This document shows positions 1 to 28,315 of a stretch of DNA of 32,000 nucleotides, piece by piece; within the stretch, counting starts at the first letter, position 1, and each line of letters opens with the position of its first letter. Under the pieces are notes generated by a model that saw nothing but the letters and a program-made list of their open reading frames with translations, was not told where the DNA came from and did not search any database. A program made the position numbers and the translations under genes. The DNA lies in the NCBI GenBank assembly GCA_025340205.1, contig CP006868.1:690001-722000 (forward strand). Direction: 5' to 3'. This stretch comes from Ignicoccus pacificus DSM 13166. GTDB taxonomy: Archaea; Thermoproteota; Thermoprotei_A; Sulfolobales; Ignicoccaceae.

Positions 1-17
1 TAGGTGTAGGGAATTTC

Positions 18-2675
18 GTGAAGACGCTCACCAACACGGTCACACTCTTCATCTCGACTACTATATACTCTACCATAACCTCAATAACCACTTCGACGTT
101 CATTAAGACCATAGTTAACACAGTAACTACTGTAATAACATCACTAATAACAACTACCAGCGTCCTAACCAAAACAGTAACGACCACCGTAACACAGTTG
201 AAATTCTTATTGGCTACAACCACCACTACGCTGCTTAAGACGGTAACTCAGACGCTGACCGAAACCTTGACCTCGATAGTGACTACTACGTTTAGCACTA
301 CCTTAACCAGTATCAGTACCATAGTAACAACAACAACTAAGGTCATAACAAGCGTCCTAACTAGCACAATAACGCACATACTCTCATTAGTAAAGACCAC
401 CACTCAGACGTTAATTAAATCAATAACCTACAGCACAACACTAACTTCATACATAACCAAGTTAAAGACGCTAACGTATTACATAACTAAGACTCTAACG
501 CTAACTAACAACATAACCACAACAAAGTTAGTCCCAGTAACTAGGATAGTGACAGCTACGTCTACGCTGACTAAGACCTTAACTCTGGTGAACACTACAA
601 CAGTAACTAACATGGTAAAGGTGATATCAAGTACCACTGTAGTGAAGCCAGTAACCGTAACGTCAGTAAAAACTGTATTAATGACGGTAACTACAACTAC
701 CCCAACGACGATAACAAGCGTGATCACCAAAACTTACTATTCTACTATAACCCAAACAGTTACCAATAACTTGACCATAACGAGGATAGTCCCAGTTACG
801 GAAACGCTCACATCCATAGTGACGAGGAACATAACTACCACCTTGACTAAAGTGCTGAAGTTTACCTATACTAGCACGGTTGAGAAGCCCGTCACCGTTT
901 ACTCGACTGTCAGCGCCTTAGTGACACTGCTCAAGACGATCTATAGTACCATAACCGAAGTAACTCCCGTTGCAGTAACCACTACAGTGACTAACGTACT
1001 TACTAAGGTGTTAACCAGTACCGTAACCACCACGTTTACCTCTATATCTAAGATAGTCAGCACCTTGGTCCTTCCAATTAAGAGCGTAATCACTAAGACA
1101 GTAACCAGCACTGTATTAATGCCCGTCACAAAGACTGTAGTAAGTAAAGAAATCGTCCCAGTAACGACCACAGTAATGGTTCCTAAGACGGTAACTTACA
1201 GTACTACCTACACTAAAGTCGTGATAGAGAATCGCACGAAGATAATTCCTGTAACGACCTCTACAGTATTGTACAAGACTCTGACGACAACTTACGTAAC
1301 CACTTCGACGGTGACTCAGGTTGTGCCATTAGTGGTAAGCACATCTAAGGAGATCACACTCACAAAGGTACTAAGAGTTACCTCCACCGTAACTAAGCTG
1401 ATAAGAGTACCAACGACCGTAACGTTCAAGACCACGATAATAAAGACGGTACAAGAGACGCTCACGAAGACCTTAGTAAGCACAATAACCTCAACCGTAC
1501 TCGTTCCAATGAAGTTAGTTACTACATTGATCAGCACAGTAAAGGTGACGGTATCCAAGGTCGGATTACTACCCATATTCAAGACAATCACAGAAACGAG
1601 CAGCACGACAGTAACTGTTACCACACCTACGACGTTGATGATAACAAGTACCAAGATTCTCTTCAAGACGCTTACCACAACAGTAGAGAAGTTAGTATCT
1701 GCAATTAGTACCGTAACGAAGACTATACTTAACGTCATAAAGCTTGTAGTGACAACGACTAACAACGTCGAAAGAGTAGTCCCAGTGATCAAGACTCAGA
1801 CTTACACGACGACCCTTACTACCTTCTCCACTATAAACGTAACCAAGACGATTACGTATACCAAACTCCTCACTACAACTCTCATTAGTCCCCTGACTCA
1901 GAGGGTAACCACTACCTTGACGTACACCTCAATAATAGTAGAGCCTATGCTAGTGCCAAAGACTAAGACATTAACCGTTACCAAGGTTCTGGTGAAGACG
2001 AGCGTTAAGAGCTCTACACTAACGTTGATAGTAAACATAACTCAAACGATCAGCAAGACCTTAACGAAGATAGTGCCTCTCACGTTAACCTTAACGCAGC
2101 CTCCGGTGACGTTAACCACTACCTTAACCAGACTACTAACCAATACCATAACGACAACTTACACTCAAACGGTGACGCAAGTCAAGGTAGTAACGGAGAC
2201 CGTTACTCACACTCTAACTTCAACGTTAACTACTACCTACACCACGATAATACCGATGATAGTGAAGCTCACCACTACAGTCTTTAACACAATAATAAAC
2301 GTATTAACAAGCACTGTAACTACCTTCTTCACCCTATCACTGTCAACCACCTACACCCAGAAGGTATTCATACCGGTGACGCATACGACTACCGTTACTA
2401 AGTTAAACGAGGTCTTAGTAACTACCACGACTACCTCTGTGCTCTACAAGGTAATATCAATAGTAAGCACTACTGTGAGCTTGGTAACTACAACAGTAAT
2501 AAGCACCGTGACGACCACTCTAACCAAGACAGCTACCACCACAGTCACGCTGGTGTCCAGTACGGTAGTGAAGCTGATAATGAATAACACTACAACTATT
2601 ACTAAGACACTGGTAAAGACAATAACCTCGATAATACCGGTGATAATAAACTTCTTCCAAGCTCTGCTGGGGTGA
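18..2675 (+). CDS. Thr/Val-rich low-complexity protein (885 aa in window), probably secreted or surface beta-rich; no family recognised
   Basis: A 2.66 kb frame stays open although TAA/TAG triplets are abundant in the other frames of this A/C/T-rich DNA. The protein is almost only T, V, I, L, K and S. I see no D, C or W and only two G. It has a recurrent (I/V)VPVT-like motif and many N-x-T/S sequons. GGTG at 3-6 could serve as an SD for GTG at 18, but the frame is also open to the window start. Confidence 0.6.
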   Translation: MKTLTNTVTLFISTTIYSTITSITTSTFIKTIVNTVTTVITSLITTTSVLTKTVTTTVTQLKFLLATTTTTLLKTVTQTLTETLTSIVTTTFSTTLTSISTIVTTTTKVITSVLTSTITHILSLVKTTTQTLIKSITYSTTLTSYITKLKTLTYYITKTLTLTNNITTTKLVPVTRIVTATSTLTKTLTLVNTTTVTNMVKVISSTTVVKPVTVTSVKTVLMTVTTTTPTTITSVITKTYYSTITQTVTNNLTITRIVPVTETLTSIVTRNITTTLTKVLKFTYTSTVEKPVTVYSTVSALVTLLKTIYSTITEVTPVAVTTTVTNVLTKVLTSTVTTTFTSISKIVSTLVLPIKSVITKTVTSTVLMPVTKTVVSKEIVPVTTTVMVPKTVTYSTTYTKVVIENRTKIIPVTTSTVLYKTLTTTYVTTSTVTQVVPLVVSTSKEITLTKVLRVTSTVTKLIRVPTTVTFKTTIIKTVQETLTKTLVSTITSTVLVPMKLVTTLISTVKVTVSKVGLLPIFKTITETSSTTVTVTTPTTLMITSTKILFKTLTTTVEKLVSAISTVTKTILNVIKLVVTTTNNVERVVPVIKTQTYTTTLTTFSTINVTKTITYTKLLTTTLISPLTQRVTTTLTYTSIIVEPMLVPKTKTLTVTKVLVKTSVKSSTLTLIVNITQTISKTLTKIVPLTLTLTQPPVTLTTTLTRLLTNTITTTYTQTVTQVKVVTETVTHTLTSTLTTTYTTIIPMIVKLTTTVFNTIINVLTSTVTTFFTLSLSTTYTQKVFIPVTHTTTVTKLNEVLVTTTTTSVLYKVISIVSTTVSLVTTTVISTVTTTLTKTATTTVTLVSSTVVKLIMNNTTTITKTLVKTITSIIPVIINFFQALLG

Positions 2676-2710
2676 TGAACTAGGTATATATTTTTCATAT
2701 CAAAGGAGTA

Positions 2711-2728
2711 GTTTATACATGTATAAAC
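2711..2728. promoter_or_regulatory. Perfect 18-bp palindrome GTTTATACATGTATAAAC containing TATA-like TTTATA on both strands, 32-49 nt upstream of the por operon ATG
   Basis: The sequence equals its own reverse complement. Its position fits an archaeal TATA box or operator for the gene starting at 2760. Confidence 0.4.
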
Positions 2729-2759: not shown

Positions 2760-3314
2760 ATGTCTTTAGTAGAGATAAGGTGGCATGGGAGGGGAGGACA
2801 AGGAGCGGTGACCGCGTCGGAGATTACTGCCATAGCTGCGATAGACCAAGGTAAGTACGCGCAAGCCTTCCCCTCCTTTGGTGTAGAGAGAAGAGGAGCT
2901 CCTGTGGAGGCGTTCACTCGAATCGATGATAAGCCGATATACATAAGGACCAAGGTGTACGAACCCGACATAATTGTAGTACTAGACCCAACTCTCTTAG
3001 GCCCTGAGATAGCGAGGGGCCTCAAGGAGAACGGCCTAGCTGTAGTCAACACTGACAAGAGCCCTGAGGAAGTTAAGAAGCTCCTAGGAAGGGATGACAT
3101 AAAGGTAGCCATCGTGGACGCTACTAAGATTGCCCTCGAGACCTTGAAGAGACCTATAGTAAACACCGCAATATTGGGTGCCTTCGTAAAGGCCAGTGGT
3201 CTGGTCGATCTTGACCACGTTTTGAAGGCTGTTAAATCCAAGGTGCCTCCAAGAACTGTGGAGGCGAACCTTGAAGCTGTTAGGAGAGCGTATGAGGAGG
3301 TGGTGATAGCATGA
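2760..3314 (+). CDS. porG: 2-oxoacid (pyruvate-type):ferredoxin oxidoreductase, gamma subunit
   Basis: N-terminus EIRWHGRGGQGAVTASE...FPSFGVERRGAP is the typical POR/VOR gamma signature. It is first in a gamma-delta-alpha-beta operon with 4-nt gene overlaps. Confidence 0.9.
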   Translation: MSLVEIRWHGRGGQGAVTASEITAIAAIDQGKYAQAFPSFGVERRGAPVEAFTRIDDKPIYIRTKVYEPDIIVVLDPTLLGPEIARGLKENGLAVVNTDKSPEEVKKLLGRDDIKVAIVDATKIALETLKRPIVNTAILGAFVKASGLVDLDHVLKAVKSKVPPRTVEANLEAVRRAYEEVVIA

Positions 3315-3610
3315 CCTTACCCGGTTGGAAGGAGCTACCCGAAGGAGCGGTCGTTAGGGAGCCAGGAAATACCGTTACCATAAGCACCGGCGAGTGGAGG
3401 GTCTTCAAGCCAGTAATAATCGACGAGAAGTGCACTAGGTGCAGGCTATGTTGGATCTACTGCCCCGATGGTACCATAATTGAGGTCGACGACCCCAACG
3501 CCCCTCTTGGCAAGAGGTACGAGGTGGACTACGAACACTGTAAGGGATGTGGTATTTGTTGGAAGGAGTGTCCGGTTAATGCTATAGAATGGGTACCTGA
3601 GGAGAGGTGA
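3311..3610 (+). CDS. porD: 2-oxoacid:ferredoxin oxidoreductase, delta subunit (2x[4Fe-4S] ferredoxin-like)
   Basis: Two Cys clusters, CTRCRLCWIYCP and CKGCGICWKECP. Size is 99 aa. ATGA-type overlap with the gamma gene. Confidence 0.9.
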   Translation: MTLPGWKELPEGAVVREPGNTVTISTGEWRVFKPVIIDEKCTRCRLCWIYCPDGTIIEVDDPNAPLGKRYEVDYEHCKGCGICWKECPVNAIEWVPEER

Positions 3611-4806
3611 TAACCATGGTGAAGATGGTTAGGAAGGCTCTAACCACCAACTACGCGGTAGCCCACGCCGCCAAGGACTCAGACGTCGACGTAATTGCCG
3701 CTTACCCGATTACGCCCTCTACTCCGGCTGCTGAGAAGCTAGCCGAGTACGTGGCAAACGGAGAGCTCGATGCAGAGTACGTCCACGTGGAGTCCGAGCA
3801 TTCCGCAGCCTCCGCCCTAGTAGGGGCCTCTGCAGTAGGGGCTAGGGCTTTCACGGTTACGGCCAGTCAAGGTCTAATCTACATGAGTGAGGTACTGTAC
3901 ATAGCATCCGGTCTGAGGCTCCCGATAGTACTGGGAGTTGCCTCCAGAGCTCTCTCCGCTCCCCTGAGCATCTGGGGCGACATGCACGATATAGCTCCAC
4001 TAAGGGATGCTGGTCTAATCATATACTTCGTGAGCTCCGCCCAAGAAGCCTATGACAGCGTAATCCAAGCGTTCAAGGTTGCTGAAGATCCCAGAGTTCA
4101 CCTACCGGCCATAGTCGATTACGATGGCTTCATAATGAGTCACGTAACCGAGCCCGTGGACGTAATCGACAGAGAGGACGTGCTGAAGTACATACCTAAG
4201 AAGGTCACTTGGAACACCCTAAATCCTAAGCAGCCGATAAGCATAGGTACCGTTGGAGATCCCGATTACTACTACGAGTTCAAGTACCAGCAGCAAGTTG
4301 CCATGGAGAACGCCGTAAAGGTCGCCGAGGAAGCTGATAAGGAGTTCGAGAAGATGTTCGGAAGAGGATATGGTCTGATAGAGGAGTACAGGATGGATGA
4401 CGCAGAAGTGGCTATGATAGCCTATGGCGCTCACGCTGGAACCGCTAGGGTAGCAGTAGACAAGGCTAGGGAGGAAGGAATCAAGGTAGGCCTGATCAAG
4501 CTAAGGCTGTGGAGGCCCTTCCCCACTGAGCACTTAATGAAAGCCTTAGAGAACGTAAGCGTAGTCGGCGTCTTGGACAGAGCTATGGCTCTGGGAGCTC
4601 CTAGGCAGGGCCCGGTAGTCAAGGACGTCATAAGCATGTATGCGAGCGATCCAAGCAAGGCACCGAAGGTAGCTAGTTACGCCCTAGCGATTGGCCAAAG
4701 AGACGTAAAGATAGAGGACCTCGTAGCTGTCGCCAAACAACTCGATGAGTTCGCCAAGGGTAAGGAGATACCCAACAAGACAATCTGTATAGGTCTGAGA
4801 GAGTGA
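3607..4806 (+). CDS. porA: 2-oxoacid:ferredoxin oxidoreductase, alpha subunit
   Basis: AAYPITPSTP...HVESEHSA...ASQGL motifs are typical of POR alpha. The start is ambiguous: GTG 3607, ATG 3616 or ATG 3625. Confidence 0.9.
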   Translation: MITMVKMVRKALTTNYAVAHAAKDSDVDVIAAYPITPSTPAAEKLAEYVANGELDAEYVHVESEHSAASALVGASAVGARAFTVTASQGLIYMSEVLYIASGLRLPIVLGVASRALSAPLSIWGDMHDIAPLRDAGLIIYFVSSAQEAYDSVIQAFKVAEDPRVHLPAIVDYDGFIMSHVTEPVDVIDREDVLKYIPKKVTWNTLNPKQPISIGTVGDPDYYYEFKYQQQVAMENAVKVAEEADKEFEKMFGRGYGLIEEYRMDDAEVAMIAYGAHAGTARVAVDKAREEGIKVGLIKLRLWRPFPTEHLMKALENVSVVGVLDRAMALGAPRQGPVVKDVISMYASDPSKAPKVASYALAIGQRDVKIEDLVAVAKQLDEFAKGKEIPNKTICIGLRE

Positions 4807-4842
4807 TTTTTGTTAAAGGAGTTATATTAAATAATCTAGGAG

Positions 4843-5832
4843 GTGATTGATATGGCGTTAAAGGAAGTAGGACCCATGGAGCCGATTAGGACCCACATGC
4901 AGATTCCAAGGGAGGAGCTCATAGCTCCCGGTCATTCAGCTTGCCAAGGTTGTGGTCACTTCATAATAGTGAGGCACTTACTGAAGGCAGCCGGACCTAA
5001 CACGATAGTGGTAAACCCCACAGGATGTCTAGAGGTAGTGACCACCGTCTTCCCCTACAGCAGCTGGAAGGTGCCGTGGATCCACGTCGCATTCGAGAAC
5101 GGCGGTTCGGTAGCCTCTGGAGTGGAGGCTGCCATCAAGAGCTTACAGAAGAAGGGTATCCTCCCTAAGGATGAGAGAATAAACGTGGTGGTCTTCGCCG
5201 GAGACGGAGGTACCGTTGACATAGGTTTCCAGAGCCTCTCGGGTATGTTCGAGAGAAGGCACAAGGTTGTCTACGTACTGCTCGACAACGAGGCCTACAT
5301 GAACACCGGTATACAGAGGTCCGGATCCACGCCCTACGGAGCTTGGACCACCACCACTCCGGTAGGGAAGAGATGGAAGGGAGAGTGGAGAGTTAGGAAG
5401 GACATGATGCAGATAGCGGTGGCTCACCATGTACCCTACGCCGCCACCATAAATCCAGCTTACCCAGTAGATATGTACAATAAGATGGTGAAGGCTCTGA
5501 AGGCCGAGGGACCCGCCTTCCTCCACGCCTACAGCCCGTGCCCGACCGGATGGAGGTTCGATCCCTCTCTAACCGTGGAAGTAGCGAGGATGGCCGTCCT
5601 AACCGGCTACTGGGTGCTGTACGAATATGATCATGGAAACTACAAGGTCACCGTACCTGTGCTGAAGAGGAAGCCGGTGAGGGAGTTCGTGAAGATGCAA
5701 GGCAGGTTCAGGCACATGACGGAAGAACAGATCAAGAAGCTACAAGAGATCATCGACGAGCAAGTAGAGCACATAAACAAGCTAGTAGGAAAGACTGTAA
5801 TTGGACCGGTAGTGGAAGAACAGAAGAAGTGA
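4843..5832 (+). CDS. porB: 2-oxoacid:ferredoxin oxidoreductase, beta subunit (TPP-binding)
   Basis: CxGCG at the N-terminus and the TPP motif GDGGTVDIGFQSL...LDNEAYMNTGIQ. The likely true start is ATG 4852, preceded by GGAGGTGA at 4839-4846. Confidence 0.9.
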   Translation: MIDMALKEVGPMEPIRTHMQIPREELIAPGHSACQGCGHFIIVRHLLKAAGPNTIVVNPTGCLEVVTTVFPYSSWKVPWIHVAFENGGSVASGVEAAIKSLQKKGILPKDERINVVVFAGDGGTVDIGFQSLSGMFERRHKVVYVLLDNEAYMNTGIQRSGSTPYGAWTTTTPVGKRWKGEWRVRKDMMQIAVAHHVPYAATINPAYPVDMYNKMVKALKAEGPAFLHAYSPCPTGWRFDPSLTVEVARMAVLTGYWVLYEYDHGNYKVTVPVLKRKPVREFVKMQGRFRHMTEEQIKKLQEIIDEQVEHINKLVGKTVIGPVVEEQKK

Positions 5833-5835
5833 CTT

Positions 5836-6882
5836 TTATGAGAACTCCTTCGGATCGCCCTTAATTATTTCTCTTAGCAAGGTCGTCGCGTAATATCCTT
5901 TAGGTAAGGTAAAGATCAAGAAAAGTCCCTCGGCACTCTTCCTAAGAACTACCTTGGCGTTATACTTTGGAGATCTTCGGAAGCTTCTTACCTTGAACTT
6001 CTTCAAACTCCTCTTTTCAATACCTTCCTCTTTAAAGTATTCCTTATAAAGATCATAAGTGTCATAGCCGGGCGTCCTGTTATACCACTTGAGGTCGGTT
6101 AGCGCCTTATTGTAAATATATGCTTGGAAGGCACCCAAGAAGATCTCGAACTGAGGGAGGGAGAGTAAGGCCTTTCTCGGAGGAAGGCCCTTAAGCAATG
6201 CCCTAGCCACTTTCCTCTCGATATTTAGATAGGGAGGGGCATCTAGGTAAGCTTTAGGACCCATTTCGTAATACAGTCTCCTTACCTCACGAGCCCTCTC
6301 AGACTCCCAAGGAGTTGGCTCACCTAAGAGTACGTTAATCGCCTCCTCCCACCTTCCTAACAACACCATCTTACCGACCACGTGAGTGATCGGTCTTCTA
6401 GTTCCGAACCTCTGGTAGGAGTATATTCCGGGAACGTCTTTCATTTCATCCAACGTTTCCTTGACATAACCCTCTATGTCACACTTAGATCTCAATCTTA
6501 TTATAAACAAGTTAGCCTTCAGATCGCCTCTCTTTACGCCGCCTTTTCCTATTTTCTTGAGGTAAAGACACTTGTTCTTCCTTTTCCATCTCCACTCACC
6601 GACGTCTACTTTTGACGAGACGTGCTGTACCGTTATCGCGTTAGAGTCCTTGAGACCTGACCAGACCCACCTTCCTCCTAACCCTTTCTCTATTTCCTCA
6701 ATGGCGTTAAAGGTATCCACGTTCTGCTTCAACAGTAGGTATAAGTTCTCATCAACGTCATACACCTTGGGTATTTCAATTACATGAAAGTCCTCAGGGC
6801 GTTGGAGCCAGATCCTACAGGGAGGTATGGTCGACGTGAAGAAACGCTTGAGTCCTATGTAAGCGTCTATTGGGTGAATCAT
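5836..6882 (-). CDS. truD: tRNA pseudouridine synthase D (TruD/Pus7 family)
   Basis: [11 protein letters not shown] (catalytic Asp motif) and [15 protein letters not shown] (FGxQRFG-like motif). Size is 348 aa. 4-nt overlap with rpl14e. Confidence 0.85.
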
Positions 6883-7245: not shown

Positions 7246-8385
7246 GTGAAGCTCTCCTTGAAAAGGACTGGGGAGTGGGGGTATACAGGTGCTTATGAGT
7301 TGAATCTAGCGCTACTACTGATAGCGATACCATCAGTAATTTCCATCATAGCCTACTTCATACCGTCAGTAAGGGAAGGGAAGAGGATATTCTCTCCAAT
7401 GCCGGGAATGATAGCCTTGAGAATAGGACTAGAGGGAAGGTCGAGGAGGACCACGAGTAAGAGTACTATGTTCATCCTGAACTTGTTCATATTGCTATTC
7501 GCAGTTGCACTGGTATTCGGATATAAGATAATTATAGAGGCGCTGGTTTCAACCCTTCTCCCCAAGTCAGCAGCGAGGGGTCCTGTATTCGTTCCCATAA
7601 TACCGGGAGTGACCATTCCCCTTAATCAGATGGTTACCTTAGTGTGGATTATAGCGGTTAGCATTGCGTTACACGAGTTAGCTCACTACTGGAGTGCCGT
7701 GAGGCAGGGGATTAAGGTCAAGGGCGGTGGCATAGGTTGGTTCCTCTTCTTTCCCATAGCCTTCGTCGAGCCCGACGAGGAAGAACTCATGAGAGCACCA
7801 TTAATAGATAGAATTAGAGTCTACAGCGCCGGTCCAGCTACCAATATGGCACTAGCTCTACTCACTTTGCTTCTCATTCAATACAACACTCATCCGGGTA
7901 TCTACGTCGTTGGGGTAGAGAGGGGTTCGGTGGCTTGGAAGGTTGGCATAAAGCCAGGTGATGTTATAGTGGAAATCAACGGAGTAAAGGTAACGAGCTT
8001 GAAACAGCTTGGTTCTATTATAGAGAAGGCTGGGAGATTTGAGCTCGTAATAGATAGGAACGGAAAACTCATTCACTTGGAAGTCGTAAAGAAGAAGGGA
8101 AGGTTGGGCATTTACGTTACCCCTTGGGCCCCGAGCGGACTATTCAGATCCTTGCCCCCAGAGACAGTAATGGGATTAGTAATGACTTTGTTCTGGATGA
8201 ACGGCATTAACACAGGCTTAGCGGTAATTAATGCCTTACCTCTCTTCATAACTGATGGAGGAAAGGTCTTCTTAGATATAGGGTCGAGATTCAAGAAACT
8301 CGAAAAACCCTTAATGATACTACAAGCAGTAACGGTAATCATGGTAGTTGAGGTATTGATAAACTCTCTCATCATGCTGAGGTAG
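7246..8385 (+). CDS. M50-family site-2 protease-like membrane metalloprotease with PDZ domain
   Basis: HELAHY (HExxH) lies in a TM segment. PDZ-like GIKPGDVIVEINGVKVTSLKQL. C-terminal NALPLFITDGG (NxxPxxxxDG). Multiple hydrophobic helices. Confidence 0.85.
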   Translation: MKLSLKRTGEWGYTGAYELNLALLLIAIPSVISIIAYFIPSVREGKRIFSPMPGMIALRIGLEGRSRRTTSKSTMFILNLFILLFAVALVFGYKIIIEALVSTLLPKSAARGPVFVPIIPGVTIPLNQMVTLVWIIAVSIALHELAHYWSAVRQGIKVKGGGIGWFLFFPIAFVEPDEEELMRAPLIDRIRVYSAGPATNMALALLTLLLIQYNTHPGIYVVGVERGSVAWKVGIKPGDVIVEINGVKVTSLKQLGSIIEKAGRFELVIDRNGKLIHLEVVKKKGRLGIYVTPWAPSGLFRSLPPETVMGLVMTLFWMNGINTGLAVINALPLFITDGGKVFLDIGSRFKKLEKPLMILQAVTVIMVVEVLINSLIMLR

Positions 8386-18781: not shown

Positions 18782-18888
18782 GGGCCCGTAGCTCAGCTAG
18801 GACAGAGCGCCGGCCTCCTAACCACATGCGGGGTTCCGTAAGGGAAGAAAGCCGGTGGTCCGGGGTTCAAATCCCCGCGGGCCCGCCA
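18782..18888 (+). tRNA. tRNA-Arg(CCU) with a canonical roughly 29-nt intron after position 37; CCA encoded
   Basis: Acceptor GGGCCCG/CGGGCCC. D arm GCUC..GAGC. Anticodon stem CCGGC/GCCGG with loop CU-CCU-A, interrupted at about 18821-18849. T arm CGGGG-UUCAAAU-CCCCG. Discriminator G plus CCA. Confidence 0.9.
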
Positions 18889-28214: not shown

Positions 28215-28315
28215 GGGCCCGTAGCTCAGCTTGGTAGAGCGGCGGGCTCTTAACCCGTAGAGGCGGGGCTTGACCGTCGCGGAAGTCCCGGGTTCAAATC
28301 CCGGCGGGCCCGCCA
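28215..28315 (+). tRNA. tRNA-Lys(CUU) with a non-canonical roughly 24-nt intron in the variable region (near position 45/46); CCA encoded
   Basis: Acceptor GGGCCCG/CGGGCCC. D arm GCUC..GAGC. An intact anticodon arm GCGGG-CU-CUU-AA-CCCGU. An extra approximately 28261-28284 sits between AG and GUC of the variable loop. T arm CCGGG-UUCAAAU-CCCGG. G plus CCA. Confidence 0.85.

Follow-up and report, generated by a model that had tools for sequence, protein, structure and literature searches.

A threonine-rich rod with a two-residue register forms the C-terminal part of a putative exported envelope protein encoded ahead of porGDAB in Ignicoccus pacificus

Crenarchaeal surface proteins such as tetrabrachion have stalks that are hendecad coiled coils of extreme stability (PMC5744192, PMC13580157), the surfaces of Sulfolobales pili are Ser/Thr-rich, charge-poor and O-glycosylated (PMC7347861), and the Fap1-type serine-rich repeat proteins (SRRPs) consist to ~80% of O-glycosylated (E/V/I)S repeats (PMC3601411). 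The S-layer proteins of the Desulfurococcales are mostly unidentified (PMC5744192), and a recent preprint on giant S-layers of Thermoproteota describes proteins with immunoglobulin (Ig) domains and transmembrane (TM) anchors, which are not the family considered here (10.64898/2026.08.21.746120). In this study, we analyzed a stretch of 32,000 nucleotides from the genome of Ignicoccus pacificus DSM 13166 (GCA_025340205.1, contig CP006868.1, positions 690,001 to 722,000; hereafter the window), the first 2.7 kb of which are occupied by the 3′ part of a gene with an extremely threonine-rich product. We found that this product, termed the rod, keeps Thr and Pro in one and the same two-residue register over almost 700 residues, carries a hydrophobic periodicity close to that of hendecad coiled coils, and recurs in three uncultured relatives, where it is under purifying selection in the closest pair and follows a Sec signal peptide and a globular head.

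The open reading frame (ORF) at positions 18 to 2675 of the forward strand starts with GTG and encodes 885 amino acids. Since this frame runs open to the window edge (from base 3), with no stop ahead of it, GTG-18 is merely the first start-like codon past the window edge and not the true start (residue numbers given below nevertheless count from it). Judging by the length of its orthologues, the window appears to hold the C-terminal ~890 residues of a protein of ~1,200–1,300 residues, the gene being cut at its 5′ end, while the stop codon lies at 2673–2675. Within bases 1–2700, each of the five other frames contains 23–182 stops vs. 2 in the Thr-rich frame, and the longest open frame in 300 shuffles reached 186 codons, compared to the 890 observed. 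A makes up 59% of first and C/T 79% of second codon positions, third positions are balanced, and Thr is encoded by all four of its codons (ACC 93, ACT 84, ACG 70, ACA 58); the bias therefore sits at the amino-acid level and does not reflect a DNA repeat. The ORF is a genuine coding region under selection.

Thr accounts for 34.5% of the product, followed by Val (15.0%), Leu (10.4%), Ile (8.8%), Ser (7.7%) and Lys (7.3%); there are 26 Pro, 23 Asn and exactly 2 Gly, and Asp, Cys and Trp are absent. The other proteins encoded in the window contain 2.4–7% Thr. The rod is strongly basic (74 Lys + Arg vs. 14 Glu) and at the same time hydrophobic, with 37% strongly hydrophobic residues and a grand average of hydropathy (GRAVY) of +0.58. 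A preliminary description, made from the sequence alone, had argued for selection on coding and for an extreme composition and had suspected that the frame continues beyond the window edge, and all three points were borne out. It had also read the many N-x-T/S sequons as a sign of heavy N-glycosylation, a claim that is not supported, as their number (9) is at the level expected by chance from composition (9.7). As for the TxT alternation and the recurrent Pro motif that it had reported, the former proved to be much stronger than claimed, and of the latter the motif stands and the recurrence at a roughly regular interval does not.

In residues 1–695, Thr occupies 194 odd vs. 42 even positions (p = 1.6e−24) and Pro 22 odd vs. 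0 even (p = 4.8e−7), while Lys has the opposite preference (9 odd vs. 47 even, p = 2.6e−7), with Ser and Leu likewise favoring even positions. A single slip of this register occurs at Pro695-Pro696, after which the opposite phase is kept to the C-terminus (residues 697–885: Thr 53 even vs. 16 odd). The Pro residues, the first of which is residue 173, mostly occur in the context [KRE]-h-h-P-[VLI]-T and are spaced irregularly, 4 to 88 residues apart, so that these motifs are a sequence grammar and not repeats. No tandem or long dispersed repeats were detected in the DNA by TRF and a repeat search, which returned only compositional matches of 60–80%, and lag autocorrelation of the protein gave no peak beyond lag 4; with no periodicity above 4 residues, both regular solenoid coils and arrays of domains are excluded. 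Of the orthologues introduced below, the one of L002 has a similarly long register with one slip, whereas the registers of L001 and L003 slip every ~80–120 residues. Local Thr alternation is therefore universal in the four proteins, but its very long coherence is not. The latter probably originated from an ancient short unit of even length combined with strong later selection against indels, while the register itself appears to be maintained, as Thr conservation is high.

Hydrophobic periodicity was evaluated against shuffles that preserve both the Thr register and the local composition. Power in the 3.4–3.8-residue band exceeded this null in all four proteins (z = 9–10), while power in the beta band did not (z −1.6 to −2.6). 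Correspondingly, consecutive hydrophobic residues lie 3 or 4 positions apart more often than in the null (z +4.7 and +5.3), an arrangement that speaks for helix, and lie 2 apart less often (z −5.5). The whole-rod spectra of L002 and L003 peak at 3.72 and 3.66 residues, both above the 99th percentile of the shuffles; the period of this putative seam (3.66–3.72) is near 11/3 = 3.67, the hendecad value found in tetrabrachion (PMC5744192, PMC13580157), and the hydrophobic content of 37% is near 4/11. Helix-like Pro-free stretches comprise residues 1–172, 318–352, 538–588, 697–745 and 787–873, and period-2 hydrophobic power is found in central windows (about residues 141–300, 361–500 and 600–620), which take in parts of the Pro-rich center.

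The downstream por genes were used as anchors to locate positional orthologues. Three were recovered directly upstream of porG, in a Desulfurococcales metagenome-assembled genome (MAG) (L001, 1301 aa), a Thermoproteota MAG (L002, 1162 aa) and a metagenome contig (L003, 1301 aa), in all of which the gene order porGDAB-TruD-M50-MDH is kept. All three open with a classical Sec signal peptide (N-termini MRAVLAAVALLSAVMALTP... and MKRAVMLALALAVAALAAEN...), followed by a non-repetitive, Cys-containing head of ~270 residues and by rods of ~870–1010 residues with 29–34% Thr, 0–2 Asp and few Gly. The heads of L001 and L002 share 32.6% identity (E = 4e−45) with three invariant Cys, and a tblastn search with the head against 82 loci matched L001–L003 only. 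BLAST did not align the window rod with the rods of the orthologues; its alignment scores nevertheless exceeded those of register-preserving local shuffles (z 5–6 vs. L002, ~4 vs. L001). The frame is unbroken in all four genomes, whose housekeeping proteins are 46–90% identical. On present sequence data, the family consists of four members, recognizable by synteny and architecture alone, and the relatives found so far are limited to a few uncultured hot-vent archaea.

Selection could be followed most closely between L001 and L003, which are both 1301 aa long and 62.8% identical, with a handful of small gaps. The proportion of nonsynonymous differences (pN) was 0.22 vs. 0.76 for synonymous ones (pS), with synonymous sites saturated. 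Thr was conserved at 82%, Pro at 89% and Tyr at 81% of positions, and substitutions were mainly swaps among I/V/L and between S and T. At the same time, the rod evolves several-fold faster than the neighboring genes (nonsynonymous divergence, dN, 0.27–0.42 vs. 0.04 in porG and 0.12 in the TatD-like gene). The rod is thus under position-specific purifying selection at fixed length, a mode of evolution that fits a folded element and not a free spacer.

Several features of the rods deserve separate mention. Each orthologue rod has a single Cys, set within a non-Thr landmark of a few residues (RGTCAPNF, LGMCHFSS, IGTCKLSR) at residues ~710–725 in L002, where it coincides with the slip of the Thr register, and at residues ~555–570 in L001 and L003. 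The window protein has no Cys, and its GLLPIFK near residue 517 is possibly related to this landmark. Asp is avoided almost totally (0, 0, 2 and 1 in the window, L001, L002 and L003 rods of ~870–1010 residues, which contain 14–27 Glu); speculatively, an extracellular protein may in this way be spared Asp-X bonds, which are heat-labile. The net charge of the rod ranges from +11 (L002) to +60 (window).

Neither rod nor head matched Pfam or NCBIfam, a PDB sequence search gave nothing credible for either, and a word-indexed search of 5.8 billion proteins returned no match for the rod, the L002 head or the head alignment. None of the three orthologues is present with its exact sequence in the searched protein collection. 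With phmmer, 1.84 billion representative sequences yielded one match, a bacterial protein of 3130 aa (P0001), which was rejected as a homologue because its many identical Val/Thr/Asp-rich repeats point to a compositional match. By these searches, rod and head belong to no recognized family, in agreement with the preliminary description.

Compared with the described systems, the protein comes close to several and coincides with none. It shares with the tetrabrachion-type stalks of Staphylothermus marinus the archaeal order (Desulfurococcales), an exported chain of ~1,200–1,500 aa with a long rod, and an extreme-temperature habitat, and it may share a hydrophobic period near 11/3 (significant over the whole rod in L002 and L003) and a very hydrophobic seam, but differs in that no PDB sequence matched it (the RHCC fragment included), in the 34% Thr, period-2 register and 26 Pro of the window rod, and in the absence of a conserved C-terminal membrane anchor. 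Moreover, where tetrabrachion has beta-sheet arms, the head of the Thr-rich protein is N-terminal and appears helical, the helicity of the rod being putative. SRRPs (Fap1, GspB, SraP) offer the same succession of signal peptide, globular region and very long tail, as well as a two-residue register in which hydroxy-amino acids alternate with V/I/E-type residues, with one slip in the rod described here. However, Thr takes the place of Ser, the rod is much more hydrophobic and basic, the host is an archaeon, and DNA tandem repeats, an LPxTG anchor and nearby accessory Sec or Gtf genes are missing; in contrast to the expanding and contracting repeats of SRRPs, rod length and positions are conserved. 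The fungal Als/Flo adhesins likewise combine a head with a Thr/Val/Ile-rich part, and a role in cell-cell or cell-surface adhesion is plausible here too, but they are eukaryotic, anchored by glycosylphosphatidylinositol, and have distinct tandem repeats of 36 aa as well as stalks rich in Ser/Thr/Pro, without homology to the rod. A Thr/Ser-rich part in an exported archaeal protein is also known from the Ser/Thr (ST)-linkers of Sulfolobales and the Thr clusters of haloarchaeal S-layer glycoproteins. These are spacers of tens of residues, hydrophilic, placed beside the membrane anchor and thought or shown to be O-glycosylated, unlike a rod of ~890 residues that is hydrophobic and positionally conserved. 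Local T-x-T motifs are shared with the TxT-ladder beta-solenoids of insect antifreeze and bacterial ice-binding proteins, which differ by their fixed coil length, their Gly/Cys/Asn turns and a TxT on one face only; in the rod, a coil periodicity is absent and turn residues are nearly so. Finally, in contrast to the S-layer proteins of Thermoproteota built of Ig-like/beta-sandwich domains with a C-terminal TM helix (SlaB/PySLP), the protein has no domain known to Pfam or NCBIfam, no ~100-aa periodicity and no conserved TM segment.

We tentatively favor the reading that the gene encodes a lineage-restricted, Sec-exported head-and-rod protein of the envelope, with a self-associating helical-seam rod that serves as stalk, spacer or adhesive fiber. 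Our confidence is higher for the part which states that this is an exported structural surface protein, as the preliminary description had already supposed and as the signal peptide and globular head of the orthologues support, and lower for the fold. After cleavage of the signal peptide, the ~270-residue Cys-containing globular head would be followed by a rod of ~900 residues, in which every second residue is Thr (or Pro) and the other register alternates V/L/I with K/S/T. The rod would be a folded structural element of fixed length and not a floppy linker, in which a ~3.7-residue, hendecad-like hydrophobic seam would drive self-association and extended stretches marked by Pro would separate the helical segments, which would probably be oligomeric. 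The hydroxyls of Thr, for which O-glycosylation is possible by analogy with the pili mentioned above, would coat the exterior and lend solubility and heat stability to a chain that is very hydrophobic, lacks Asp and is poor in Gly. In this way the rod might hold the head off the cell, as the stalks of crenarchaeal surface proteins do; as one helix, its ~900 residues would reach over about 130 nm, and a folded-back rod would be far shorter. The protein is an uncharacterized variant with an unusual sequence design within the class of Ser/Thr-rich exported stalks and adhesins.

A number of observations weigh against this interpretation. The whole-rod spectral peak of the window protein (3.68) falls just below the 99th percentile of the shuffles, and L001 has no global peak. 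Beta-branched residues make up 58% of the rod, and Chou-Fasman propensities favor beta over helix (<Pb> 1.21 vs. <Pa> 0.96), with Pb > Pa in 98.5% of 8-residue windows. With 26 Pro, long helices would be broken, and it is not obvious why an alpha-helix should have a Thr register of period 2. Single-sequence AlphaFold2 models consist mostly of helices, with a low predicted local distance difference test score (pLDDT; 41.7 for the whole fragment, 36.3 for residues 160–470) that reached 50–58, in helix, in residues 1–172 only; these models are too poor to interpret and were given no weight. As regards export and anchoring, signal peptide and head are known from the orthologues only, the window gene's own 5′ part lying outside the window, and there is no conserved C-terminal TM anchor, as the C-termini of L001, L002 and L003 are too short or charged. 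The tail of the window protein, VKTITSIIPVIINFFQALL, is its most hydrophobic 19-residue window (Kyte-Doolittle 1.64) and is borderline as a TM segment. Lastly, no glycosylation, glycosyltransferase, dedicated export or surface-assembly genes were found nearby, the neighbors in the window and at the orthologue loci being housekeeping genes.

Some of these points are equally the case for a beta-rich fiber, i.e., amphipathic strands with a Thr face (a solenoid, stacked hairpins, an in-register ribbon or an amyloid-like rod) with Pro at the turns, which we regard as unlikely, though as the most serious of the alternatives. The alternation of Thr over hundreds of residues, the beta-branched composition and propensities, and the central windows with period-2 hydrophobic power all fit it, and fungal Als/Flo adhesins provide a precedent for Thr/Val/Ile-rich, beta-aggregating sequence behind a globular head. 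However, such a fiber has to accommodate about 100 turns, and 2 Gly, no Asp and 23 Asn make these hard to reconcile with the rod; a constant length of coil or repeat is lacking, the Pro spacings are irregular, hydrophobic residues avoid i+2 in favor of i+3 and i+4, beta-band power is not raised, and half of the face opposite Thr is polar or Lys. For the same reasons, the beta-solenoid or stack of hairpins put forward in the preliminary description is not supported, and the search for repeats that it called for found no unit above 4 residues. An unfolded O-glycosylated brush or spacer of SRRP or mucin type, in which (Thr-X)n would serve recognition by glycosyltransferases and the rod would be a hydrated stalk, seems improbable. 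In its favor, the arrangement of a signal peptide and a head before a long tail in dipeptide register resembles that of Fap1, all Pro lie within the Thr register, AlphaFold2 confidence is low, and the rod diverges between genera so fast that BLAST does not align it. Against it stand the strongly hydrophobic content, the lack of tandem repeats in the DNA, the missing glycosyltransferase and export genes, and above all the behavior of L001 and L003, whose equal length, position-specific conservation and near-absence of indels at saturated synonymous sites are unlike disordered spacers. In terms of fold, we thus rank a helical-seam rod with extended Pro-marked interruptions above a beta fiber, and the latter above an unfolded glycan brush.

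Still less probable is that the protein is the S-layer protein of this clade, with canopy and stalk, as a counterpart of tetrabrachion, SlaB or PySLP. A size of 1.2–1.3 kaa, the Sec signal, the rod-like tail and the hendecad-like periodicity would suit this role, as would the fact that so few S-layer proteins of the Desulfurococcales have been identified. Conversely, a C-terminal TM helix is missing in three of the four orthologues, there are no Ig-like or other domains and no periodicity of domain size, the coiled-coil fragment of tetrabrachion available in the PDB shows no similarity to it, and the net charge of the rod varies widely. A chance or decaying ORF in skewed DNA, for which the extreme low complexity and the lack of a database homologue might speak, is effectively refuted by the length of the frame relative to shuffled sequence, by its integrity in four genomes, which also bears out the conservation in relatives that the preliminary description had left to comparison, and by pN well below pS with Thr and Pro conserved in position. 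Returning to the head-and-rod protein, a bolder form of the proposal, less likely in our view than a beta-rich fiber and more so than a brush, would be that the rod is an undescribed kind of hyperthermostable fiber, with a repeat-free Thr-X register of ~700 residues on a ~3.7-residue seam. Its architecture might be that of a helical or mixed alpha/beta rod with a coat of Thr (and possibly of glycans), or else a beta structure of a new kind with a single register, and it would form the envelope stalk or adhesive matrix of an uncultured Desulfurococcales-related clade.

The coordinates of the rod gene, its parts and other features of the window are collected in Table 1. The gene ends in two consecutive in-frame TGA codons (2673 onward), with a T5 run 13 nt later, and a TATA-box-like block precedes porG. 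The block suggests that porGDAB has its own promoter and, together with the TGA TGA and the T5 run, that the Thr-rich gene is probably a separate transcription unit. A scan for bacterial-type sigma-70 promoters and terminators, which is not applicable to archaea, gave nothing at the terminator.

Table 1. Features of the window discussed in the text (positions count from the first base of the window)
Feature	Position	Strand	Basis and remarks
Thr-rich rod gene, 3′ part (890 codons + TGA stop)	3..2675	+	Open frame; positional orthologues of 1162–1301 aa in L001, L002 and L003; 5′ end outside the window
Pro-free segment, residues 1–172, with hh-pp hydrophobic patterning	18..533	+	Best period 3.76; high local 3.4–3.8 power; odd Thr register
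Pro-punctuated center, residues 173–696, with 22 successive Pro in the Thr register	534..2105	+	22/22 odd parity; mosaic of helix-like and period-2 windows
CCT CCG (Pro695-Pro696), sole register slip	2100..2105	+	Thr/Pro odd before, even after
C-terminal part, residues 697–885, in the shifted register	2106..2672	+	Hydrophobic tail VKTITSIIPVIINFFQALL (2613–2669); terminal I-P-[VI] motif common to the orthologues
Second in-frame TGA, then T5 run (2691–2695)	2676..2695	+	Read from the sequence; likely archaeal termination signal
TTTATACATGTATAAA, TATA-box-like A/T block, 33–48 nt upstream of the porG ATG	2712..2727	+	Read from the sequence; putative
porG-porD-porA-porB (2-oxoacid:ferredoxin oxidoreductase)	2760..5832	+	Pfam matches; synteny anchor, outside the rod gene
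TruD	5836..6882	-	
M50 protease	7246..8385	+	
tRNA gene, 104 nt	18782..18885	+	Rfam
tRNA gene, 98 nt	28215..28312	+	Rfam

The neighbors in the window comprise POR, TruD, an M50 protease, MDH, an RNase P subunit, methyltransferases, a transketolase, an ABC/FtsX transporter, FeoB, GAPDH and aconitase, while MBL-fold, TatD-like and PurL genes lie upstream of the orthologues. Within the syntenic block, the POR subunits and MDH are 80–90% identical to those of L001–L003, compared to ~46% for TruD and the M50 protease, which means either that rates are very uneven or that the window organism is fairly distant from the MAGs. Outside the window, in the intergenic region upstream of the orthologues, a block of ~60 nt is nearly invariant (L001:5040–5110, L003:2801–2870, L002:5503–5570), although the flanking proteins have diverged. 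It reads ATCGGCATAGGGCGATGAACGATCGGATTTCGGCCGA...TGAGGA...CCCGGGGGTGAGCCAA, contains motifs resembling C/D boxes (GATGA, CCGA, GGATGA, GTGA) and matched no Rfam family; a small RNA is one possibility, and an element of a shared divergent promoter or 5′ untranslated region is another. ARAGORN with default settings reported no tRNA in the window, although Rfam matched two, and both genes probably contain introns. Intron-containing tRNA genes are common in Thermoproteota.

The sequence design of the rod is unusual, in that one-third of the chain is Thr in a Thr-X dipeptide register, Asp is absent, Gly is nearly so, and a helix-like pattern of hydrophobic residues is set in a beta-prone composition, all of which is conserved without DNA repeats and with hardly any indels. 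Such a design would test how a low-complexity sequence stays folded and selected at ~100 °C, and may be of interest for the engineering of heat-stable fibers. The family was missed by standard homology tools and by single-sequence AlphaFold, and it was recovered by synteny alone. As most envelope proteins of the Desulfurococcales are unidentified, this head-and-rod protein would offer a concrete candidate for such a component, be it stalk, adhesin or matrix, of an uncultured hydrothermal clade.

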